DNA of 32,000 nt from Haloquadratum walsbyi C23 (GTDB taxonomy: Archaea; Halobacteriota; Halobacteria; Halobacteriales; Haloferacaceae): the NCBI RefSeq assembly GCF_000237865.1, contig NC_017459.1, positions 1,710,001 to 1,742,000 of the forward strand. Direction: 5' to 3'. Positions within the stretch are counted from its first letter, which is position 1. Every line of letters starts with the position of its first letter. Under the pieces are notes generated by a model that saw nothing but the letters and a program-made list of their open reading frames with translations, searched no databases and was not told the origin of the DNA. The translations under genes were made by a program, and so were the position numbers. Positions 1,236 to 17,219 of this stretch are shown here, piece by piece.

Positions 1236-2390
1236 TTATTCAAGCCATTGACGGATTTTAACCAATAATGGCACATCGCGTTGTCGGCGACCAATTCGAA
1301 TCGGGTCAAGTCCAACCAATGTCGTTGAAATAATAAATGATGCAGCACCGACAGCAGTGTTGATCGCAATGAGTGGTGCCCATGGATGAATACGATATAA
1401 TCCACTAATCATTTCACGCGGGAGAAAGGCAAGATATCGATGTTCAACAATTGCATCGACATACACACCGGTTGAGGGTGGCGCAGAAATCGTCACATTT
1501 GTTTCCGCTGTTGTCTGTGCGGGAACAACCAACTCTGTATCAGAGACAGCAACATTATCACTTGCTGGTTCAATCATCACAATAACCGGGATCCATCCAT
1601 TACTTGGGACTTGATAGCTCACTGTTTCATTTGACCCCTGTCCAATAACGGAAATCCCAGCAGAATCACTCTCCGAACTCACATACTGAAATTGATGGAC
1701 ACCACCGGGGAGGATCATACTCATAGTGAGGGTGGCTGTCAGAAGCAATATCAAGATAGTGATAATGAGTGTTGGATTGATTTTTCCTGCGGAGCGTGAG
1801 GTGTCTCGGCGGCGGGTTGATCGGGTATTTTCTGCATATGCTGACAGTGCGTATGCAATCCCACCAAAGCCAATAAGGATATATGACAGTCCTTGCCCAC
1901 CAAGGATTGCTCGTGTTCCAAGTAATACTGCTAATTCTTCCTGTGCTGTTGTTGTGAGTGATCCCATTGTGGTGACTGCAGTTCCAAGATTAGGAATCAC
2001 AACAACAAAATCACCAATCGCGAGTGCTTTTGCAACAACCTGTGACTCACTGACTGGTGGTTCAGACCCATCCTGATCGGTGACAACATTCGCATCACCA
2101 CGGGTGATATATCCATCTGATGTTGTCCCAACGACTCGATGTGTGACTAACCCACCACCGTTGAGATTAACAGCGTCAAAGGTAACAATATCACCCTCCT
2201 CAATTGGTCCAGCTAATGCTGTTGGAATCGCAATAAACCCATCACCAGCGCTAATGGTCGGAGCCATACTCCCCGTTTCAACATATGCCGGACCAACTGG
2301 CTGTCCGAGAAGTGCCCCGGCGAGCATTGAAATAACAAATAATAGTGCTAGCGCGCCGCCAACCCGTTTGAGTACCTGTACTAGCACCAT
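1236..2390 (-). CDS. Signal peptidase I, archaeal/ER (Sec11/SipW) type S26B, with a long multi-TM C-terminal extension
   Basis: ATG start. N-terminal anchor is ALALLFVISMLAGALLG. Catalytic motifs are the Ser box VETGSMAPTISAGD, the His box LVTHRVVG (Ser/His type, not the bacterial Ser/Lys type) and the Asp box ITRGDANVVTDQDG. About 200 extra residues carry three further hydrophobic segments (LSYILIGFGGIAYALSAYA, LIITILILLLTATLTMSMIL, LIAINTAVGAASFIISTTLVGL). Confidence 0.85.
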   Translation of the reverse strand: MVLVQVLKRVGGALALLFVISMLAGALLGQPVGPAYVETGSMAPTISAGDGFIAIPTALAGPIEEGDIVTFDAVNLNGGGLVTHRVVGTTSDGYITRGDANVVTDQDGSEPPVSESQVVAKALAIGDFVVVIPNLGTAVTTMGSLTTTAQEELAVLLGTRAILGGQGLSYILIGFGGIAYALSAYAENTRSTRRRDTSRSAGKINPTLIITILILLLTATLTMSMILPGGVHQFQYVSSESDSAGISVIGQGSNETVSYQVPSNGWIPVIVMIEPASDNVAVSDTELVVPAQTTAETNVTISAPPSTGVYVDAIVEHRYLAFLPREMISGLYRIHPWAPLIAINTAVGAASFIISTTLVGLDPIRIGRRQRDVPLLVKIRQWLE

Positions 2391-5879: not shown

Positions 5880-8189
5880 TCACACATCGAGGGTAAATTC
5901 TCTCGTGTGTTCCGTCGCGGTTTTCTCTTTTTCATTCACAGTCTTCACCGCAATCGTGTATGACTCTGTGTCATTAATTGAGAGAGTTGGTGGGACATAC
6001 AGTGTCGCCGGGGTCAGCTCATATCGATATGACCCGATTTCTGTTGTTCCTGTCCCGTCGGGCGTGATCTCTTTCGTGAGGAGCTCGTCTCCGTCATCGT
6101 CCACAATTGAGAGTCTGATGGCGATGATTGGGCGATTGTCATCCTCGACCACGAGTGAGTCGACACCGAGACATCGATTATCATGCTCATAGAACGGGGT
6201 CCCGAGTTCGACAATTCGTGGGTTGCGACGAATGCGGGTCATGATCGTCGCCCATGGAAAGACGCGATACCCAGCAACGGACCCCAGAATTCCAATCAGT
6301 GACAGGATCCCTGGCATAAGCACCTGCTGTGGGACGACTCGTTGATTGATCAGCGTCTCTTCGGGTGGAATCACAATCGTCTCAACTGTTGATGCCTCGC
6401 CACCATACTCATCTTCGACACGTACTTGGACTGTATATTGTGTCTCTTGGGTTGGATACGTGACCGTCTGTCCGGTCTTAATCGTCCCATCAGGGAATTC
6501 CCATCGCACGGAGACATCGCCGATTTCATTTGAGATATTCGCAGTCAGTGTTGTCTCATTTCCATCGGTTTCAACTTGAGTTTGCGTCTGCGTTTGCGTT
6601 TGTGTCTTGGTCACGTTATCGATGGCTGGAATATCATTCACCACAATCGTTTGAGTTGTTGTATCTGACTGTCCAAGGCTGTTCGTCAGTTTCAATTTAG
6701 CCTCATAGATCCCTGGTTCATTGAATTCTGTTTGAATATTCCTGCCAGTTTTTGTTGATCCATCCGGAAGTGTCCAGGTGTATCGAACATCAGGATCAGC
6801 GAAGATTGCAAATGGGGAGAACCCAGGTGTTCCCGCTTCAAGAACAACAGAGTCCTCTCGAACAGTCACATCAGTGTCCAATACCTGCCATCCGTCATCA
6901 GTCAACCGCCCGACAACAGCCTCATCAGGGTCAACCTCTCCCAGCGTCGATCGGTCTGTATTCAATTCGATCGTTGTCTCGGTATCTCCTTCTGACGATG
7001 GCACATCAATATCGACTGCTGCTGATACCTGTTGTGAGGGAGACACTGCATCAGTTGATCCAACTGTTGACTGACCTCCATCCAGTTCAACCTCCTCATC
7101 TGTTGTTGTGACGATTGCGTTCGAGTCAATGTCGAGATCAGATGTTTCAGACTCTATCCCGCTACTCGAATCCGAATCTGCTGTGCTTGTGGCTGTCTCT
7201 CCGCTTTGATCACTTTCACTCGCAGCTGTTGTCTCAGTCTCAGTCTCAGTCCCAGAGCCTTCAGTCTCCTCCTCGGCAGGTGAGTTGATAACAGCAGTCG
7301 GTCGGGACTCTCCTTCCGGAAGTGACTCCGTCGAAATAGGGTCAACATCAACAATACTCTGTCCCTGCTGTTGCTGTGACTGTGATTGTGATTGCTCTTG
7401 TCCCTCTGCTTGTCCTTGTTGCTCTATGGTTGTATCCTGTGTTTGCTGCTCTTGAGCAGACTCAATATCGACTGCTATCTCTGGCTGTTCAACCTCAGGG
7501 GCAGTTGCTGTTTGTTGTGGTTGCTCTTGTGGGGCAGTCGCCGTTCCCTCCGGTTGTTGCTGTTGTTCAGTTTCGGGGACAGAATCGGGAGTTTGTTCTG
7601 CGGGTTCATCCGAATCATCATCATCATCATCATTCTCACCTAATCCTGTGTCCGTGTCCGTGTCCGTTTCAGGCACCTGTGTTCTGATCGTGATCGTCGT
7701 GGTAAGTGTGTCTCCAACATCCACATCAAGTGTATTAATCTCAATTCCCAGCGTTTCAGACTCTCCAGGCGCGAGTGTCAGGTTTCTGCCAGTCGCTCCA
7801 ACGCCGCTGTCGGGCTCACGAAATGTGAGGTTCTGCCCAACTGTGAGTCGGGAATCTTGCTGTTCAACGGTGACGGTGACAGGTCCATCGGTGGTATTGT
7901 CTGTGTGGGTAATGACGAGTAACTCTTCGAATTCGGTAATGGCATCCGCATTGACACCTGGATTGGCAATCTCAATCGAGACGTTTGTGACGTTTGTGTT
8001 CTCGCCTGCGGTCTCTGTCTTCGTGATGTGCTGCTCGGCTCCAGAAGCCGGTTTGACTGTGATCTCCGGAGCCTCTTCGGGGAAGAGTTCATCCTCAACG
8101 ACACCTGGCGTGCCGACAATCGCCCCTGGAATCACAACGAATGCTGCACATACGACTACGAGTATCGGGCTTACCGAATTAATTTTCAT
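5880..8189 (-). CDS. Large surface protein: signal/anchor, N-terminal beta-sandwich module, acidic low-complexity spacer, PGF-pre-PGF-type motif, two PKD-like domains, TM helix, ~130-aa cytoplasmic domain
   Basis: ATG start 11 nt downstream of the stop of the 8201..8818 gene. Leader is MKINSVSPILVVVCAAFVVIPGAIVG. The N-terminal module reads VSIEIANPG...LVITHTDNTTDGPVTVTV. Low-complexity runs include TDTDTD, D8, SQSQSQQQQ and TETETE. The PGF-pre-PGF-type motif is DGWQVLDTDVTVREDSVVLEAGTPGFSPFAIFA. PKD-like repeats are VRYTWTLPDGSTKTG...YEAKLKLTNSLGQSDTTTQTIVV and VRWEFPDGTIKTG...YTVQVRVEDEYGGEASTVETIVI. The TM is LMPGILSLIGILGSVAGY, followed by RIRRNPR. Confidence 0.8.
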   Translation of the reverse strand: MKINSVSPILVVVCAAFVVIPGAIVGTPGVVEDELFPEEAPEITVKPASGAEQHITKTETAGENTNVTNVSIEIANPGVNADAITEFEELLVITHTDNTTDGPVTVTVEQQDSRLTVGQNLTFREPDSGVGATGRNLTLAPGESETLGIEINTLDVDVGDTLTTTITIRTQVPETDTDTDTGLGENDDDDDDSDEPAEQTPDSVPETEQQQQPEGTATAPQEQPQQTATAPEVEQPEIAVDIESAQEQQTQDTTIEQQGQAEGQEQSQSQSQQQQGQSIVDVDPISTESLPEGESRPTAVINSPAEEETEGSGTETETETTAASESDQSGETATSTADSDSSSGIESETSDLDIDSNAIVTTTDEEVELDGGQSTVGSTDAVSPSQQVSAAVDIDVPSSEGDTETTIELNTDRSTLGEVDPDEAVVGRLTDDGWQVLDTDVTVREDSVVLEAGTPGFSPFAIFADPDVRYTWTLPDGSTKTGRNIQTEFNEPGIYEAKLKLTNSLGQSDTTTQTIVVNDIPAIDNVTKTQTQTQTQTQVETDGNETTLTANISNEIGDVSVRWEFPDGTIKTGQTVTYPTQETQYTVQVRVEDEYGGEASTVETIVIPPEETLINQRVVPQQVLMPGILSLIGILGSVAGYRVFPWATIMTRIRRNPRIVELGTPFYEHDNRCLGVDSLVVEDDNRPIIAIRLSIVDDDGDELLTKEITPDGTGTTEIGSYRYELTPATLYVPPTLSINDTESYTIAVKTVNEKEKTATEHTREFTLDV

Positions 8190-8200
8190 AATTTCCCCTG

Positions 8201-8818
8201 TTATCCTGTCTGTCTGATATGAACGTGTGCAGTCGCAGTGATTGTCGAACTCGTTGCTTCAGTTCCGGCTCCGGTTCCAGAAATAGATGCAGATGCAGAA
8301 TCGTCAGCAACGACTCCGACAACACGCTCTTCACCCGGCTCAAGCGTCACAGTGACATCAGTGCCGCTTAATCGCTCACCAGTCTCAGCATCACGATATT
8401 GTAGATCTGTGGATCCAGCGTTTGCATCCGTCTCTGTCTTCGTGTCGACATTTGTATCCTCGTGTGTGATCCAGACGGTCACCGTCTGTGTGTCAGTGTT
8501 CGTGATCGTGAACACTGGCTGGGATGGATTCGGTTGTGTCGGGATCGCTTGTGGTGGCGTAATATCAACACGTGTGATTGCCCCATCACGCAATGTGTTC
8601 TGGGCAGTGAGTGCCCCAGGGGCATCCCCAGCAGGTTCGATCATCACTGCCTGTGGATTCCCCCCTGTATTGGGGGCGGGTGTTGATGCTGCTGATGCTG
8701 ATGCTGTTCCACTAAGGCTAGGACTGGAAGCGTCTAACGCCGAGACCAACCCGCTTGAGGCGATGATCGCGGCGATGACGACTGCGAGTGCGAGCGTCTT
8801 GACTAATCGGGGTGTCAT
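8201..8818 (-). CDS. Small secreted protein, divergent paralog of the TasA-like proteins
   Basis: ATG start. Sec-type leader is MTPRLVKTLALAVVIAAIIASSGLVSA, followed by an A/S/T/P linker. The core motif VFTITNTDTQTVTVWITHED matches IFNITNNGEEDVDVWINTEG and IFNITNNGESTVTVWIATQG of the two larger paralogs. It is co-directional between the 8952 gene and the 5880 gene. Confidence 0.7.
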   Translation of the reverse strand: MTPRLVKTLALAVVIAAIIASSGLVSALDASSPSLSGTASASAASTPAPNTGGNPQAVMIEPAGDAPGALTAQNTLRDGAITRVDITPPQAIPTQPNPSQPVFTITNTDTQTVTVWITHEDTNVDTKTETDANAGSTDLQYRDAETGERLSGTDVTVTLEPGEERVVGVVADDSASASISGTGAGTEATSSTITATAHVHIRQTG

Positions 8819-8951
8819 TGGTCGAACTATTGAAATATCGACGAATATCGGCTGAGAAACTATTCGCTAGGTCCCCTAGAGAAATATATTCGACTGTTCG
8901 TCAGTAGGGGGAAAGGAGTTCAGTTATGTATCAGATCTGATACTCTGTTGG

Positions 8952-9698
8952 TTATGATCCTGGTCCTGTGGTTGTTCCCCCATCTATTGCGTTGTCACCT
9001 TCCTCATCATTCACTGCTGAGATGGTGATATCCTCGAGGATTGGCTCATCAGTGTTGTCGAGATTGAGTGTACCGCTGCTCACAGCTTCAGGCTCGATTT
9101 CGATTGCCATACTGACTGTCACTGTCTCACCAGATTCAATATTAACCGCTATAGCGTTGTTATCCGGTTGTTCCGAGAGACTACTTGAGTCCTCAGAGAT
9201 AACGACATCGTCGGAATCAATCATCGCGTTGAATTCGTTGATTCTGTTGTCTATACTCACTGAAGAATCACTACTTGTCTCGTTGATCTGAGAGCCAAGC
9301 TGATTATCATCAATATAGAATGTCGTATTGACGCTGCTATTACCGTCTTGTGCACCGCCTTCTGTGTTAATCCAGACGTCGACATCCTCTTCGCCGTTGT
9401 TTGTAATATTGAATATGCCCTCAGCAGTTGTCGTTGCGTTCGCATTCACTCCATTATTGCCATCATTTCCATCTAGGACGATCTCGAAGGTCGAATCATC
9501 AGTGTCATCTTGATTAATGAATGAACTATTCTCCGGATCTTCAGTCGGCTGGATTGCGAGGAGTGCATTCGCGTCGCCAGCAACGTCGACATCAGCTGTA
9601 CGCTCTGCTTCAACAGTTGTGAACGCGCCCGTGGCCGCGAGGGTGCCCACGGCACCAAAGACCAGCACAAGCGCGAGGAGTTTTCCTTTTGGAATCAT
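8952..9698 (-). CDS. Secreted TasA/camelysin-like protein (possibly DUF1102 family), candidate major fibre subunit, paralog 1
   Basis: I prefer ATG 9698 over the upstream GTG 9752 because it gives a canonical leader, MIPKGKLLALVLVFGAVGTLAATGAFTTVEAERTADVDVAGD. This parallels the paralog at 13830 and the SipW-dependent TasA leader as I recall it (...LVGGGTWAAFNDIKSKDATFASGTLDL). The core motif FNITNNGEEDVDVW resembles TasA FQFENNGSLAIKEV. The protein is N/T/S/D-rich with many N-x-S/T sequons. Confidence 0.85.
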   Translation of the reverse strand: MIPKGKLLALVLVFGAVGTLAATGAFTTVEAERTADVDVAGDANALLAIQPTEDPENSSFINQDDTDDSTFEIVLDGNDGNNGVNANATTTAEGIFNITNNGEEDVDVWINTEGGAQDGNSSVNTTFYIDDNQLGSQINETSSDSSVSIDNRINEFNAMIDSDDVVISEDSSSLSEQPDNNAIAVNIESGETVTVSMAIEIEPEAVSSGTLNLDNTDEPILEDITISAVNDEEGDNAIDGGTTTGPGS

Positions 9699-9805
9699 AG
9701 TTTGAATTTCTGTGATTATGATGTGAGTTCCCCCGATCAGAGGGGTTCTCACTTACATGTACACAAACACCCTTCCCCCTTTGTTATCCCCCTCTACTAA
9801 ATCAG

Positions 9806-9965
9806 TAGGAGATAATAACGTCACCCCGGGACTCACATAGGTGACGCTAAATTGCCCCGGCAATTCGAATAGGAGATGCTAAACTCACCCTGAAAATATG
9901 ATAGGCGACGCTAAATAATCGCAAAAATCGAGTTAGTCTTGTGTAAAATCACCGTTAGACCCGCC
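9806..9965. repeat. Phased tandem array with exact 32-bp spacing: four clear units and one degenerate unit, consensus TAGGnGAYGCTAAA
   Basis: Units start at 9806 (taggagataataac), 9838 (taggtgacgctaaa), 9870 (taggagatgctaaa), 9902 (taggcgacgctaaa) and 9934 (tagtcttgtgtaaa). The array lies 108-267 bp upstream of the 9698 start, in the 1.19-kb divergent intergenic region. Confidence 0.7.
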
Positions 9966-10889
9966 TAATATGGCGAATATAGTGAATCCAGGATGATTTG
10001 TGCACACCACTCAGTGATATGCATACAATCTCAATTCGATGAAATACTTGGAACCCCCACTCTCGATCGGGGATGGTTCCTCCGACATCGATTGTCTCGG
10101 ATATGTGACCTCGCGCGAGTCTTTCATTAGTGATCCCTCGATATTCGGAATCGCGAGCGCAATCGTTGATCGAATGGACTGTCTATTCAATTCTCATCGG
10201 TCAGGATTCACCTGTGAATCTAATTTAGTCAGATATTCCCACCACGGTGATCAGTCTGAGAGTTTCGAGCAGCCAGATGGGCCGCGGTCGGATCATCTAT
10301 CGGTCTCAATAGCTCCCTGACATGAGGAGAATAATGGGTTTCTTGATGCTATGATTGAGAGCAGAACGATTGTCATCAGATTCTCATGTGTTTCTTACTG
10401 ATGATACGTAGCGATATAGCTATATGATGATATAGCACTCTGTCGACCAACTGGTCAACGGTGATGATCAGAAGCATTGTCCTGTATATTCAACCGGGTG
10501 CAAGATAGATTGTTGATATCGACATTGCTGAACGGGTCATTCTCGCTGCGACTGTTTCGGGCGAGAGCGAGTCAATGCCGGTGTCAGGTGATTATATAAA
10601 ACATATTCGACGTATGCATCGTTTTGTCTGTGATTTACGCTAGAAACTGGGTATGGCTTGTGTGCGCAATCACGTAGACAACGATGACAAACAACGTCGG
10701 ATCGAAAAGATGAATCACACGCTGTTACTCGTCTCATCTCCATTCATGAATATAGATATAAACATACGATAGATTTCATGATATACTGACGCTCTACGGA
10801 ATTGTGAATTGTGGGGAGAGATATGTACCCTGAAAGCAACGTAATTGATTTATTCACTCGTATTGAACATGTAAGCAACAAATCAAATA

Positions 10890-12770
<1,881 letters not shown>

Positions 12771-13125: not shown

Positions 13126-13830
13126 TCAGTCGACTTCGAGTCCAGCTTCTGATTGATCAGGGTCTGCAATAGCAAGTATCGTAATCCGATTGAGGACCGC
13201 TTGATTGGAGTCAGGATCAATCCCATCGATTTCGACGGCAATACTAATATGAACACTCTGACCTGGAGTAATACTAATCCCAATTCCCTCTGTTCCTGGA
13301 GTGTCACCAGTGATTTCCGGCTCCGAGATGACGTAGTCCTGACCCGGATCGATGAATGCGTCAAAGGTAGTAATTCGTCTATCGATACTGACACCGCGAT
13401 CTTCAATTTCAGTCACATTCGCATTTTGAGAACTGCCGATATCGTCAATGTAGAATGTCGTATTAACATTATCTGACTCATTTTGTAAGCCGCCTTGTGT
13501 TGCTATCCACACTGTTACTGTTGATTCCCCGTTATTTGTAATATTGAAGATATTCGCTGCGGTTGTTGTTGCGTTTGTATTTAATTGTGCATTGTTTCTT
13601 CCACTCACATCAATCGCAAAAGTGCTATCGGCAGTGTCAGACTGCTGAATAAACGCACTTTCATCTGGGTCAACTGCCGGTTGAATTCCTAACAGTGCAT
13701 TAGCGTCCCCGGCGACGTCCACATCTGCGGTTCGCTCAGCCTCAACTGTACTGAATGCCCCTGTTGCGGTCACTCCAATTGCTCCACCAAAGAGCAGCAA
13801 AACAGCCACTACTCTAAGGAGTGATATCAT
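13126..13830 (-). CDS. Secreted TasA/camelysin-like protein (possibly DUF1102 family), paralog 2
   Basis: ATG start. Leader plus first strand is MISLLRVVAVLLLFGGAIGVTATGAFSTVEAERTADVDVAGDANALLGIQP, nearly identical at protein level to paralog 1. Shared core motifs are NATTTA, IFNITNNGESTVTVW and VNTTFYIDD. Confidence 0.85.
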   Translation of the reverse strand: MISLLRVVAVLLLFGGAIGVTATGAFSTVEAERTADVDVAGDANALLGIQPAVDPDESAFIQQSDTADSTFAIDVSGRNNAQLNTNATTTAANIFNITNNGESTVTVWIATQGGLQNESDNVNTTFYIDDIGSSQNANVTEIEDRGVSIDRRITTFDAFIDPGQDYVISEPEITGDTPGTEGIGISITPGQSVHISIAVEIDGIDPDSNQAVLNRITILAIADPDQSEAGLEVD

Positions 13831-13945
13831 AATGGGTTCTCATTATTATAAGAACTCTGGGTATATCATCTTATTGACTCAACGTTATGAGGAGTATGTT
13901 CACAGAAGAAGTCAAGATAATACTTATGATACCCTGCATGTGACC

Positions 13946-14003
13946 CATTGAGATTCATTCCCGCGCTGAAGCGCGAGGCTTTCTCCTCGATTCTCCGTAA
14001 GTA
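13946..14003 (-). repeat. GC-rich hairpin element in AT-rich spacer, possibly a remnant of an IS1341-type tnpB 3' end / right end; loosely related copies near 13037-13098 and 28283-28347
   Basis: The hairpin is CGCGC-TGAA-GCGCG at 13962-13975, flanked by ttcattccc and gaggctttctcctcgattctccgtaag. Related strings are gagaatttctcctggattatcgagg...cgttcattccc at 13046-13096 and attctcct...gagcgaggttttc at 28295-28323. The shared 10-mer ctatctatac precedes both of the other two copies. Similarity is weak and was judged by eye. Confidence 0.3.
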
Positions 14004-14065
14004 ACAACTCAAAATTCGTTGGTTTGATATTGATTGGATTGTCAGTATATGTACGAATAACCCTG

Positions 14066-14638
14066 ATGATGATAGCCGACGCTGCCGAACAACAAAACAG
14101 TGTAAAGGCGTTATCGACGGATGAGGCATATGATATTCTTTCTGATCAGCGCCGGCGATATGCCATTCATCATCTCAAGCAATTAGACACGGCAGTAAGC
14201 GTTCAGGACCTTGCTGAACAGGTAGCCGCATGGGAGAATGAAAAACCGATTGAACAGTTAAATTCACAGGAGCGAAAACGGGTTTATATCTCGTTATATC
14301 AATCACATCTTTCAACACTTGATGATGAAGGGATTGTTGAATACGATGAAGAAAACGGAATGGTCAGTCTCACTGACGCTGCCGATGAATTAAATATCTA
14401 CTTTGAGGTTGTGGCAGGCGATGATATTCCATGGAGTATATTTTATATTGGTCTAACGGCCGCTTTCAGTGCACTTGTCGGACTTACATACACTGGAATC
14501 GGTGTTCTCCAGCGAAGTCAACTTATCTTCGTGACAATTGGAATGCTTGTTTCGTATACTGCTGCAGGAGTTATCCAGACAATCCAACGAAAACGGATGG
14601 AATTGGGCGACTCTGGACCACCACCAGAATTGCAGTGA
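14066..14638 (+). CDS. Membrane-tethered winged-helix (ArsR-like, haloarchaeal DUF7344-type) putative transcription regulator
   Basis: The motif AYDILSDQRRRYAIHHLKQLDTAVSVQDLAEQVAAWENEKPIEQLNSQERKRVYISLYQSHLSTLDDEGIVEYDEENGMVSL matches the haloarchaeal HTH family I recall as DUF7344. Two C-terminal TM helices are WSIFYIGLTAAFSALVGLTY and LIFVTIGMLVSYTAAGVIQTI. I prefer ATG 14066 over TTG 14024. Confidence 0.75.
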   Translation: MMIADAAEQQNSVKALSTDEAYDILSDQRRRYAIHHLKQLDTAVSVQDLAEQVAAWENEKPIEQLNSQERKRVYISLYQSHLSTLDDEGIVEYDEENGMVSLTDAADELNIYFEVVAGDDIPWSIFYIGLTAAFSALVGLTYTGIGVLQRSQLIFVTIGMLVSYTAAGVIQTIQRKRMELGDSGPPPELQ

Positions 14639-14766
14639 GTATTTTGTTCAATTAAATAATCATCACCGTCTCCGATTAATCACAGATCATTTTATCTGCG
14701 GATAATCAGTCGATTTTACTCAGATATCAAGTAAGCTATTATCGCTGGTTCACTCTGAGAACCGGG

Positions 14767-16071
14767 TCACGTCTCAATGACGGTGTCAAATATTGGTCGA
14801 AGTGTATTGATTGTGCGGTCTCCATCTGACGGTGTCATTAGATAGGTTGTCTCAATATCTGCAGATTGGAGACGTCGACTGAGTGTATATAAAAACTGGA
14901 ATACTTTCTGTGGGCTAAGATACTGCAGGAACGCCTGAAGCGTATGAACGCTGCAGACTGTATTTTGATCTGGGTTCTGCCAGTTATCAAGTACCTGTGT
15001 AATGAGAATACCAAGTCGGGACAGATCAGTTTGATCGGATATCTGGTGTGTTTCAATTGATTCATCCATCCCATCACCAGATAGTTCTGCAACTGACATG
15101 TCTCCAGGAACACTTGCTCCGACTTTGATAATGATAATCTCACCACCGTCCCAACTCGGATGTTCCTGACACGCACGGAGTATATCGATCGTCTCACCTG
15201 CTGGAACAAGTAATAATAGATTCTGTGGGTACTGTGTTTCTAGTATATGATTAAATCCAGCATTCCATGTTTGTGAGTTATCCTCTCCAAGCAGAAGCGC
15301 TTGTGACCCATCAGAGACGGTGCTACTATCACTCTGAATACTCTCAGCAGAGGTACTGTCCGTCAGTGATGACGATTGCTGTGACTGTGACTGTGACTGT
15401 GACTGTGACTGCGGGGCAACCGGAGAGTCAGTCTGACCAGTATTCACGGACGTATTCTCGTTCTGGTTACTATCAGTGATGATTTCTTCAGGGATGTCTG
15501 TTTGACCGATATTCACAGAGCTATTTTTATTTTGATTACTAGATGTGCTTGCCTCATTTGATGAATCTGAACCAGAGGGCTGGTTCCATATACGCTCCGA
15601 GTCACGCTGAGATCTGTCAGCCGCAGGCTCAGTTGAGTGTTGATTTGAACCCGTAGATACGGCAGAATCAGACATATCATCAGAATTTTTCAGACGATCA
15701 TCGCTTGATAGTCCAGTTTTGATACTGTCAGAGTCAGTATCAGTTGCATCCGTAATTGCCGCATCGGACCAGACGCGAGTAGAGCGGGAGTCATTCGTTA
15801 TGTGCTCTTCTGGATCTGGCGTGGTTGTATCGGTATCAGTATCAGTATCGCTAGCGAAATCTGAACTTGAGTCTGCGTCCGCAGTTGTCTCATCGTCTGA
15901 GAGGGCATCATCATCATCGTTATTAATATTGTTATCTGCTGATTCGTCTGTATCTATATCATCAGGAGATTCAAACTTAGCAAACCGGGATCGGACAGTG
16001 GTACTCGTCTCTGCTTCATCATCCATGTCATCTTCCTCGGTCATGAGAAGAGAACAAATACCGAGTGACAT
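14767..16071 (-). CDS. Highly acidic protein with a disordered D/S/T-rich N-terminal ~270 aa and a C-terminal degenerate KaiC/RecA-like domain with no Walker A
   Basis: ATG at 16071, with an alternative ATG at 16044. Dipeptide repeats TDTDTDTDT and SQSQSQSQSQ are present. The C-terminal part (NLLLLVPAGETIDILRAC...VCSVHTLQAFLQYLSPQKVFQFLYTLSRRLQSADIETTYLMTP...LRPIFDTVIE) resembles the haloarchaeal inactive KaiC-like family. No GxxxxGK[ST] is present. Confidence 0.65.
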   Translation of the reverse strand: MSLGICSLLMTEEDDMDDEAETSTTVRSRFAKFESPDDIDTDESADNNINNDDDDALSDDETTADADSSSDFASDTDTDTDTTTPDPEEHITNDSRSTRVWSDAAITDATDTDSDSIKTGLSSDDRLKNSDDMSDSAVSTGSNQHSTEPAADRSQRDSERIWNQPSGSDSSNEASTSSNQNKNSSVNIGQTDIPEEIITDSNQNENTSVNTGQTDSPVAPQSQSQSQSQSQQSSSLTDSTSAESIQSDSSTVSDGSQALLLGEDNSQTWNAGFNHILETQYPQNLLLLVPAGETIDILRACQEHPSWDGGEIIIIKVGASVPGDMSVAELSGDGMDESIETHQISDQTDLSRLGILITQVLDNWQNPDQNTVCSVHTLQAFLQYLSPQKVFQFLYTLSRRLQSADIETTYLMTPSDGDRTINTLRPIFDTVIET

Positions 16072-16112
16072 ACCGTTTGTACACTATGCAATTGATATCC
16101 AATAATCATCAA

Positions 16113-17219
16113 TTAGCTCAGTCCGTTTTCATCCGTCTCTTCATCTAGAAATGGACTAAAATCTTCTGACTCATCAGCTGATAGATTCCGTGGGGCACCG
16201 GTAAGGACATCTGAAGTGAGTGGATTCCATCCGCTCGGGTCAATATCATTGAACGGAGTCTCACAAAATGGACATGCTGGTGAGGCTAACATTGAGATAT
16301 TTATATCCTCATCACAGTAGTCACATTTTGCATGTTCTATCCCTTCTTGGAGAGCTGTTTGTCTGATTGCTTCTAAGGTTTCTTTATCCTCACTTATAGA
16401 GCTAATCATGTCAGTGTTATCCTCAATTTGATTTGTTAGCTGACTCCGGCGTGTCTCAAACTCCTCTTGTCGATTGAGTGCTGTTTCAAACGCACTTTCA
16501 ATTGAGTCAAACTCATCATCAACCCGTGATTGGATTGTTTCTTGGGATCTCTCAAGCTCTTCAATCCTCGATTTGAATTCCTGTCGTAATTCAAGAGATT
16601 CTTCATATGACTGGTTGAGTTGCTCAATTTCTTCTTTCAGTAATTCGATTTCAGATTGTACATTAGCCATTTTCGCATCATTCTCAGATGAATTGCGTGA
16701 GCCCCGATTTTCATTCTCCATTATATTCACTTCTTGTTCGATACTCTTGACACGGTCTTGAAGTCGGACCCAACGCTCAGTCTGGCTTCGGCGGTTCTGG
16801 TCAATCTTATCTGATAAGTCGTACAATCGCTGCCACAACTCCTTTTCAGACCGTTCATCTGACATTTTCCTGAGTCCATCATTATAGTCCGGACCGCTTT
16901 CAGAGACGCCACTCTCTTCAGATTTAGACGTTGATACAGATTCCCGCTTTCCTACCGGTAACGGCTGTTCTTTTTGATCAATCGTATCATTACCGCCGGT
17001 GGATGCACCAGTTTCCTGGTCATGATTTGACTGGTTGGCAGTTGTTGTGTCTGTAACAGAGTTCAGCGTGCGTTGTAATTCAGTATATACCCAATATGCA
17101 GAAACAGTCTGATCCAATATTTCATTTGTTGATACTCCCTCGGACTCAGCCATCTCCTCAGCCCACTCTAAGAATTCATCTGTATCAAACTCAATATCTT
17201 TATCTGATGTATTATTCAT
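16113..17219 (-). CDS. Acidic coiled-coil protein with a C-terminal zinc ribbon
   Basis: ATG start. There is a long heptad-like E/Q/R/L-rich stretch (residues ~120-290, e.g. EIELLKEEIEQLNQSYEESLELRQEFKSRIEELERSQETIQ). The C-terminal CxxC...CxxC motif is CDYCDEDINISMLASPACPFCETPF. No family name recognised. Confidence 0.7.
   Translation of the reverse strand: MNNTSDKDIEFDTDEFLEWAEEMAESEGVSTNEILDQTVSAYWVYTELQRTLNSVTDTTTANQSNHDQETGASTGGNDTIDQKEQPLPVGKRESVSTSKSEESGVSESGPDYNDGLRKMSDERSEKELWQRLYDLSDKIDQNRRSQTERWVRLQDRVKSIEQEVNIMENENRGSRNSSENDAKMANVQSEIELLKEEIEQLNQSYEESLELRQEFKSRIEELERSQETIQSRVDDEFDSIESAFETALNRQEEFETRRSQLTNQIEDNTDMISSISEDKETLEAIRQTALQEGIEHAKCDYCDEDINISMLASPACPFCETPFNDIDPSGWNPLTSDVLTGAPRNLSADESEDFSPFLDEETDENGLS

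Follow-up and report, generated by a model that had tools for sequence, protein, structure and literature searches.

What does a short sequence, reiterated at exact intervals ahead of a surface-filament gene, do in a haloarchaeon? The question is posed by a 32,000-nt stretch of Haloquadratum walsbyi C23 (assembly GCF_000237865.1, contig NC_017459.1, positions 1,710,001 to 1,742,000; hereafter the window, at its full length), where a preliminary description had reported five boxes at 32-bp intervals upstream of the minus-strand gene of a TasA-like fimbrial subunit and had proposed cooperative binding by an oligomerising regulator. We found that the repeat is real, larger and better defined than first reported, and that the main interpretation given at the time was broadly right but incomplete. 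Judging from comparison across lineages, the feature is conserved and almost certainly cis-regulatory. We propose that it is probably a helically phased operator array, to which a dimeric regulator would bind cooperatively at the promoter of a taf-like operon, with TafB, a winged helix-turn-helix (wHTH) protein encoded in the same cluster, as the most likely binder.

Seven dyad boxes upstream of the subunit gene

On comparison with related contigs, the part of the repeat under constraint proved to be a 12-bp dyad core, TAG-N6-CTA, and the strict boxes found across lineages yielded the gene-strand motif TTAG-N5-Y-CTA-A-C. The 14-mer TAGGnGAYGCTAAA, initially taken as the unit, is better replaced by the dyad TTAG-N6-CTAA as the functional core. 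Seven cores start at 9785, 9806, 9838, 9870, 9902, 9934 and 9956, with successive spacings of 21, 32, 32, 32, 32 and 22 bp. The 32-bp start-to-start spacing of the five boxes first described (9806, 9838, 9870, 9902 and 9934) is exact on reading the sequence, and their distance of 108-267 bp from the ATG at 9698, within a 1192-bp intergenic region, was likewise confirmed, but the boxes at 9956 and, next to the promoter, at 9785-9796 had been missed.

All seven boxes are given here on the minus strand, the strand of the gene. Nearest to the gene, box 0 (9785..9796; gene strand TAGAGGGGGATA, also given as TAGAGGGGGATAAC, followed by AC-AAAG) is degenerate in that ATA replaces CTA; it is joined to the conserved block ACAAAGGGGGAAGGG, and its TAG is invariant in all 17 lineages compared below. 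Box 1 (9806..9817; gene strand TTATTATCTCCTAC, plus strand TAGGAGATAATAAC), also degenerate, follows at 21 bp. Box 2 (9838..9849; gene strand TTAGCGTCACCTA, plus strand TAGGTGACGCTAAA), box 3 (9870..9881; gene strand TTAGCATCTCCTA, plus strand TAGGAGATGCTAAA) and box 4 (9902..9913; gene strand TTAGCGTCGCCTA, plus strand TAGGCGACGCTAAA) lead on to the degenerate box 5 (9934..9945; gene strand TTACACAAGACTAAC, plus strand TAGTCTTGTGTAAA), and the array ends 22 bp further on in the palindromic distal box 6 (9956..9967; gene strand (CATA)TTAGGCGGGTCTAAC(GG), plus strand TAGACCCGCCTAAT). Where four well-conserved boxes and one degenerate box had been counted, three boxes indeed match the 14-mer with 0 mismatches, but the box at 9806 departs from it at 3 positions, and of the box at 9934 TAG...TAA alone is left. 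The boxes measure 12-15 bp with an 18-bp spacer; their centres are G+C-rich, and TTAG can be preceded by T, A or G. With TTAG/CTAA ends invariant and the centre variable, the dyad has a size suited to a dimer.

Within the window, whose G+C content is ~45%, the motif is concentrated in the array. TAG-N6-CTA occurs at 6 sites in the 32 kb, 4 of them within the 130 bp of 9838-9967, and matches to TTAG-N5-YCTA, the motif as derived from other genera, were found solely inside the array (5 matches at 4 sites, versus 0.87 expected). The original 14-mer consensus gave 3 matches at up to 1 mismatch versus 0.03 expected, a count that none of 100 shuffles reached; with up to 3 mismatches allowed, it was not enriched (13 versus 10.5). 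Conservation between whole 32-bp units, which are merely 64-74% alike, is confined to the boxes, and this is why Tandem Repeats Finder, run at a minimum score of 30, did not report the array. Phased T-tracts follow each box by 6-10 nt in the Haloquadratum units; they are inconsistent in other genera and were not used.

Several other classes of repeat were considered and rejected. Clustered regularly interspaced short palindromic repeat (CRISPR) arrays, which have 24-37-bp repeats and unique spacers beside cas genes, and replication iterons or origin recognition box (ORB) elements, which flank orc/cdc6, do not fit the box size, the length of the spacer, the absence of any cas or orc gene from the window and the promoter-tied position. 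A methylation switch of the pap type was dismissed as well, there being no GATC or CTAG inside the boxes.

Spacing in whole helical turns is kept across genera

We collected 17 promoters and counted boxes on 15 of them (Haloquadratum lineages, Halopenitus and Halobellus), the other two being those of Halorarius and Halorarum. A contig scan with the subunit alignment returned 5 Haloquadratum metagenome-assembled genome (MAG) loci only, and the other genera were reached by exact-protein look-ups: Halopenitus persicus (L060) and Halobellus rubicundus (L061) via subunit homologues, and, independently, Halorarius halobius (L062) and Halorarum halobium (L063) via TafB orthologues. An unassigned metagenome lineage of higher G+C content (L034) served as an extra case. 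The pattern TAS-N6-NTWACRAAG, used as an anchor, occurs once in the window and once per taf promoter (17 lineages, 5 genera). In the 240 nt upstream of it, the 15 promoters contain 26 strict boxes, versus 0.72 +/- 0.84 in dinucleotide-preserving shuffles (maximum 5 in 500). These boxes lie at offsets of 21, 42, 53, 64, 75, 85, 107, 117 and 171 from the anchor, and the offsets are phased on the helical repeat, with a Rayleigh R of 0.89 at 10.6 bp compared to 0.2-0.3 at 9.5-10 and 11.5 bp and ~0.1 at 12 bp. Positions outside the search pattern were also kept, namely the T before TAG (26/27), a Y at position 8, before CTA (23/27), and a C at +13, two bases after CTA (22/27). Motif, enrichment, phasing and the conserved position relative to the promoter across genera are thus matters of observation.

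In each of the four named genera beyond Haloquadratum and in the unassigned lineage, TAG-N6-CTTAC-AAAG lies directly upstream of the first subunit gene together with 1-3 in-phase boxes, in flanks that could not be aligned. Read from the distal end towards the promoter, the spacings are 31 and 21 bp in Halopenitus, 43 and 21 bp in Halorarius (where the middle box is degenerate and the strict box stands 64 bp from the anchor) and 32, 32 and 21 bp in the unassigned lineage, with a single spacing of 21 bp in both Halobellus and Halorarum. The two 18-kb loci reached via TafB each have their sole strict TAG-N6-CTA at the first-subunit promoter, and the two 14.5-kb loci have one (Halopenitus) or two (Halobellus), one of them at the subunit promoter. 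A taf-like cluster on the Haloferax larsenii plasmid pHl5678-1 (L065 8017-8141) carries two TTAR-N5-CTAA boxes, TTAGCTGGGCTAAA and TTAAGGGGGCTAAT, placed 21 bp apart at the equivalent promoter; their central spacer of N5 is one base shorter, and the TafB-like protein of that cluster is 40% identical.

Haloquadratum itself provided a finer series. The metagenome contigs L001, L003, L008 and L017 have an almost identical array, with subunit proteins just 82%, 65% and 48% identical to that of the window. Distant lineages (L004/L005, L006, L010/L047, L028, L031, L036 and the J07HQW1 MAG, L055) have a different N6 and unrelated spacers with the same TTAG/CTA ends, as was also seen across metagenome and genome loci with 41-82% identical subunits, and they share a layout in which a distal pair 22 bp apart is followed by 32-bp steps and then by 21 bp to the proximal box. 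Across lineages, box 6 is the best conserved of all: L004, L036 and L055 have it in near-identical form, and a similar version occurs in L010, L009 and Halopenitus; the degenerate box 5 has a homologous TTAC/TTAA counterpart at the same place in L006 and L036 and a more degenerate copy in L010. A box at offset 21 or 22 was found in 15/16 tabulated lineages, with offsets assigned by hand and many of these boxes degenerate; L009 is without one.

An extra conserved element, CCCGAATTCGGCATAT, directly precedes the distal box in L009, L036 and L060 and is partly present in the window at 9968-9985; in Halopenitus, this element forms an inverted repeat around the distal box (CCGAATTCGGCA ... TGCCGAATCCGG). 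We also weighed whether the distal box (CTAATATGG) could hold a divergent promoter and rejected this, given that the upstream neighbour is co-directional in Halopenitus and Halorarius.

Box number ranges from 2 to 7 across lineages. Including the proximal box, the core count is 7 in the window, 5 in L004, L055, L010, L006 and L028, 4 in L036 and 3 in L031, and Haloquadratum lineages differ in steps of ~32 bp: aligned to the window by BLAST, L010 is ~64 bp shorter (2 units) and L036 ~96 bp shorter (3 units). As near-identical lineages have equal box numbers, this is slow evolutionary variation and not a hypermutable tract. Tandem array-promoter-subunit modules, two of them complete, ~1.9-2.8 kb apart and with unequal box numbers, occur in L004 (659, 3470), L010 (1410, 4221) and L058 (4060, 5912).

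These comparisons bear on the claim that all boxes face the same side of the DNA, which holds in so far as every spacing is an integral number of helical turns; with steps of 21 and 22 bp present as well, the rule is not one of 32 bp. They also support, on comparative grounds, the proposal that a regulator binds cooperatively: when orthologous intergenic regions were compared, as the preliminary description had advised, the box ends and the 21/22- and 31/32-bp spacings were found to be kept across genera while the spacers and all else diverged. Protein binding, its cooperativity, the sign of regulation and the filament or oligomer originally envisaged are inferred.

The same data speak to the idea that the array is a functionless tandem duplication, or the decayed fragment of a repeat-bearing mobile element, lying in a long intergenic region. 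The units do resemble old duplications (47-nt copies are 64-74% alike), intergenic regions of H. walsbyi are long, and L036 has an open reading frame (ORF), beginning MRYTYRYQLEPTDTHREQLDFYRDTCRQLYNHALKEF, that presumably resembles the N-terminus of an IS200/IS605 TnpB-type protein; it lies ~160-370 bp upstream of the subunit gene (870-1076 of the extracted upstream stretch), upstream of the array and on the strand opposite to the gene. However, decay has affected the spacers and spared the box ends and their spacing, and the same box stands at the same promoter distance in five genera with unalignable flanks. The array region also lacks similarity to phage or plasmid records, as searches of the intergenic region against phage and plasmid DNA gave one weak 94-nt match, outside the array, and no Rfam family was found there, a scan of 9000-11500 with E up to 10 giving one chance-level match, again outside the array. 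We hence regard an origin without function as highly improbable.

The array adjoins a conserved promoter block

Archaeal promoters have a TATA box centred near -26/-27 with the transcription factor B recognition element (BRE) just upstream, and in haloarchaea an A/T element near -10. Upon aligning the 17 promoters at the proximal box, we found that a conserved promoter block, xTWACAAAG, adjoins this box, and that GTAAG follows 27-28 bp downstream, measured from the octamer centre; between them, the octamer xTWACAAA is followed by a G-rich stretch and by an A/T patch ~10-11 bp before GTAAG. GTAAG itself is present in 10/17 lineages, with a purine at that position in most others. On this basis, we predict a TATA box at 9780..9787 on the minus strand (ATAACAAA in the window and CTTACAAA in other genera, the block being invariant in 17 lineages), a BRE just upstream of it at 9788-9793, and a transcription start region at 9754..9758, with the G of GTAAG at 9756 and a leader of ~58 nt. 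We hold this assignment of TATA box and start site with fair confidence. An alternative TATA box, GTTTGTGTA at 9760-9768, would shift the assignment by ~20 bp, placing the proximal box just upstream of the BRE. Relative to the predicted start, the box centres lie at about -34.5, -55.5, -87.5, -119.5, -151.5, -183.5 and -205.5, and box 0 runs across the predicted BRE into the 5' edge of the predicted TATA box.

Since each box reads as weakly TATA-like, a stack of reiterated promoters had been raised early on as another explanation, in which each box would be a BRE/TATA-like core promoter, or a decoy for TATA-binding protein (TBP) and transcription factor B (TFB), and in which tandem starts or titration of basal factors would set expression. 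The proximal box does resemble the upstream boxes and merges into the predicted TATA box (TAG-N6-ATAAC-AAAG), and the boxes end in TAA or TAAA. Yet the ACAAAG-GGG block, the -10 A/T patch and GTAAG follow the proximal box only; the upstream boxes have G+C-rich centres with at most 4-5 A/T at one end, as well as the variable base before TTAG; and spacing in whole turns would be meaningless for independent promoters. Tandem promoters are therefore very unlikely in our view.

Least probable of all is an action of the repeats at the RNA level, where a long upstream transcript or a small RNA covering the array would carry them as binding sites or structure. In its favour, the whole 1.19-kb non-coding intergenic region is 92-98% conserved between Haloquadratum lineages, but phasing at exactly 10.6 bp and dyad symmetry belong to DNA as a duplex, the predicted start lies downstream of the array, and the array region had no Rfam match at E up to 10.

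Other features of the intergenic region are recorded here in their own right. The predicted 5' leader begins with a 30-nt palindrome at 9723..9752 on the minus strand (GTGAGAACCCCTCTGATCGGGGGAACTCAC), conserved in Haloquadratum lineages, among which no compensatory changes were seen; it might form a hairpin in the mRNA or serve as another operator close to the start site. Beyond the array, the ~900 bp of 9970-10889 are non-coding and differ little between Haloquadratum lineages (92-98% identity); this stretch may harbour a non-coding RNA or a further regulatory region. Within it, 10519-10612 is matched at 74.5% by an unannotated spot of a Haloterrigena turkmenica plasmid. The ORF at 10039-10320 was considered as a divergent small gene also served by the array, and was rejected because its frame is broken or absent in L001, L008, L017 and L010.

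TafB is the leading candidate binder

The product of 14066..14638, on the plus strand, is a 190-aa TafB-type protein of the Pfam family DUF7344 (3.5e-30). In the Taf papers, TafB is a putative transcription regulator with two transmembrane helices and a cytoplasmic wHTH (PMC11821415, PMC12337348). The AlphaFold2 model of the window's protein (predicted local distance difference test score, pLDDT, 77.5) places the wHTH at residues 18-108 and transmembrane helices at 123-143 and 150-174. A scan of the 20 larger ORFs found it to be the sole DNA-binding-type protein of the window's cluster, and it is also the most conserved cluster protein, with orthologues 50-60% identical across genera. Wherever the flank suffices, a TafB homologue lies on the box-bearing contig (L033, L035, L055 and L060). 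The Haloferax larsenii plasmid cluster, in which a TafB-like gene accompanies two boxes, also speaks for TafB. The gene had been put forward at the outset as a source of wHTH protein for binding tests; its product is the membrane-anchored putative regulator typical of taf clusters, and it is the best candidate. We nevertheless treat TafB as the box-binding protein only tentatively, with a confidence just short of even.

A number of observations weigh against the proposed array and its assignment to TafB. No box stands beside tafB in the window, where the interval 13831-14065 is as empty of boxes upstream of the second subunit paralogue as had been reported, nor in Halopenitus, so that there is no sign of autoregulation in these intergenic regions. 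Halobellus rubicundus has boxes with no TafB homologue within 7 kb on either side, and, conversely, a plasmid cluster of Halorientalis marina with a TafB-like gene (L064) has no such box. Co-occurrence of TafB and the boxes is expected anyway, because both belong to taf clusters. Foldseek matched the TafB fold to generic winged-helix proteins only, at E ~0.05 or weaker, from which no binding specificity can be inferred, and no sequence relative of TafB was found in the PDB; a literature search found no paper mentioning DUF7344. The 15 promoters used for the box counts, finally, are not fully independent, because many Haloquadratum arrays are mutually homologous.

The same phased operator might instead be bound by a soluble oligomerising regulator encoded elsewhere, for example an octamer of the Lrp/AsnC type. 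Such an octamer wraps DNA with one dimer per ~31 bp, as at E. coli pap and ilvIH, and pap has six Lrp sites before its pilus subunit operon. Imperfect palindromes ~three helical turns apart and, on our reading, cooperative binding are shared with these promoters and with the archaeal feast/famine regulatory proteins (FFRP), and the 31-32-bp spacings here match such wrapped assemblies; the tafB promoter without a box and the Halobellus boxes without a nearby TafB point in the same direction. On the other hand, the 20 larger ORFs of the window include no Lrp/AsnC or other soluble regulator gene, although one could lie elsewhere in the genome, and the 21-22-bp spacings at both ends of the array are not predicted by a uniform disc-like wrap. 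In none of the loci that we examined, moreover, did the box go beyond taf promoters. The Lrp sites of archaea are imperfect inverted repeats of 13-17 bp with an A/T-rich centre (PMC6396743), unlike the G+C-rich centres found here. Overall, we consider a soluble regulator unlikely.

A taf-like cluster with a hypervariable subunit cassette

The array lies within a gene cluster resembling those described for the 'Tat-fimbriae' (Taf, tafi) of Haloarcula hispanica and Natrinema sp. J7-2 (PMC11821415, PMC12337348). The first gene of the predicted controlled operon (8952..9698, minus strand) encodes the secreted 248-aa TasA/TafA-TafE-like fimbrial subunit, with a SipW-type signal peptide; its product matches NCBIfam TafE at 4e-14, under the family cut-off, and its homologues are DUF1102/TafE-like. 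The window further holds a second TafA/E-like paralogue (13126-13830, minus strand), a TafC-like protein (10890-12770), a TafF-like PKD protein (5880-8189, minus strand), an S26 signal peptidase (1236-2390, minus strand) and a DUF5305 protein (171-1229). Hence, TafB-, TafD- and TafG-like genes are all found beside TafA/E-, C- and F-like ones, in the form of DUF7344 with two transmembrane helices, the S26 peptidase, DUF5305 and weak TafE, TafA, TafC and TafF matches. The subunits differ from those of the described clusters in that their SipW-type signal peptides lack a twin-arginine signal, no RR being present in the N-termini MIPKGKLLAL... and MISLLRVVAV..., and in that their NCBIfam Taf scores of 52.7 and 49.8 bits are far under the cut-off of 155. 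For these reasons, we call the cluster taf-like rather than a certified Taf member. Term searches of the two Taf papers found no repeat or box element, and promoters appear there only as cloned native promoter regions (PMC11821415, PMC12337348).

Two further observations concern neighbouring genes. Synteny links the genes for TafB, a DUF7504 protein and a coiled-coil protein in Haloquadratum (window 14066-17219), Halopenitus (L060 2474-6220) and Halorarum (L063 9001-11738), and this set may constitute a regulatory module; no PDB relative of the DUF7504 neighbour was found. Inside the TafC-like gene, at 11766-11874, lies an in-frame hexanucleotide repeat, (AACGAC) x 18 with 99% matches, which would encode an Asn-Asp repeat.

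The gene for the subunit varies in the manner of a hypervariable cassette (window 8823-9590, minus strand, within 8952-9698 at the gene itself). L011, L014, L015 and L017 are 83-94% identical to the window upstream, down to 9306-9589, and 96-100% identical again from ~8810-8823 downstream, with an intervening stretch that is unalignable in L014, L015 and L017, where the subunits are 48-51% identical; subunit identity is 57% in L011 and 65% in L008. These conserved flanks around an unalignable stretch indicate that a conserved control region drives interchangeable surface subunits, consistent with the variable surface islands known in H. walsbyi (PMC9684190).

Discussion

The array displays what is expected of an operator array, that is, a motif recurring above chance, dyad symmetry, whole-turn spacings with diverged spacers and a fixed place relative to the core promoter. 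We suggest that each (T)TAG-N6-CTA(A) dyad would bind one dimer of a helix-turn-helix (HTH) protein, and that all dimers would sit on the same DNA face, because the boxes are 2 or 3 whole helical turns apart. The well-matched upstream boxes would recruit protein first, and the weak boxes next to the promoter would be filled afterwards through lateral, cooperative contacts. As the proximal box touches the predicted BRE/TATA, occupancy of the array could set the frequency of initiation by TBP and TFB at ~9756, and box number, which varies from 2 to 7 by lineage, may tune both cooperativity and threshold. TafB and its boxes would then form a one-component system resembling that of ArnR and its boxes at the archaellum promoter of Sulfolobus.

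Archaeal appendage operons offer two precedents. ArnR and ArnR1 carry an HTH at the N-terminus and two transmembrane helices at the C-terminus; at the Sulfolobus acidocaldarius flaB (archaellin) promoter, they depend on two inverted-repeat boxes of 15 bp (consensus TCGAC-N5-GTCGA) at -43 to -84, more than one box being required for binding. EarA acts at the Methanococcus maripaludis fla operon, where four TACATA copies are required for activation. Both are activators that bind repeated sites upstream of the BRE (PMC6396743, which cites Lassak et al. 2013 for ArnR). TafB shares the domain layout of ArnR, with an N-terminal wHTH and two C-terminal transmembrane helices, and in both cases short inverted-repeat boxes stand immediately before the BRE/TATA of a gene for a surface-filament subunit. 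In contrast to the ArnR system, the boxes here are TTAG-N6-CTAA and number up to seven rather than two, reaching ~-205; TafB is without a HAMP or sensor domain, its wHTH leading straight into the transmembrane helices; and the filament is a fimbria of the TasA/Taf type and not a type IV pilus. With EarA, the array has in common several copies of a short motif upstream of an archaeal surface-appendage operon promoter, whereas the EarA sites are 6-bp, non-dyad TACATA sequences for which whole-turn phasing is unreported, and EarA is soluble. The array would work like the ArnR-box/ArnR system and the Lrp-phased fimbrial promoters but is a member of neither, since consensus, domain content and site composition differ.

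A bacterial parallel, by analogy only, is ToxR, a membrane-tethered winged-helix regulator for which TTTTGAT heptad repeats stand upstream of Vibrio cholerae ctxAB, with a copy number that differs between strains. A membrane-tethered winged-helix regulator (TafB being the candidate here) and a tandem array of variable copy number are common to both, but the ctx repeats are contiguous 7-bp direct repeats and not spaced dyads.

As to the sign of regulation, we lean slightly towards activation, by likeness to ArnR and EarA; repression, suggested by the overlap of the proximal box with the BRE/TATA, would fit equally well. A more far-reaching variant, to which we give clearly less credence than to the operator array as such, is that the same-face rule is due to a membrane tether. 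C-terminally anchored TafB dimers would reach the DNA from one side, and the array would zip the taf promoter to the inner membrane face. Occupancy might then be coupled, through the transmembrane helices, to the state of fimbrial secretion and assembly or to the pool of unprocessed subunits, giving an assembly-feedback switch whose gain would be set by box number (2-7). If true, DUF7344, a family widespread in haloarchaea, would have in these boxes its first defined operator, and the array would be a multi-site membrane-DNA tether in archaea.

Taf/TasA-like fimbriae in haloarchaea were described only in 2023-2025, and their regulator TafB is called 'putative' in both papers. The present work adds to this picture a conserved and precisely defined DNA target, TTAG-N5-Y-CTA-A-C, predictions for promoter and start site, and a natural series of arrays holding 2-7 boxes; together, these make the function of TafB and cooperative regulation directly testable. 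The array is also a clear archaeal example of binding-site spacing kept in whole helical turns across genera. For Haloquadratum, a conserved control region beside a hypervariable subunit cassette points to interchangeable surface antigens.

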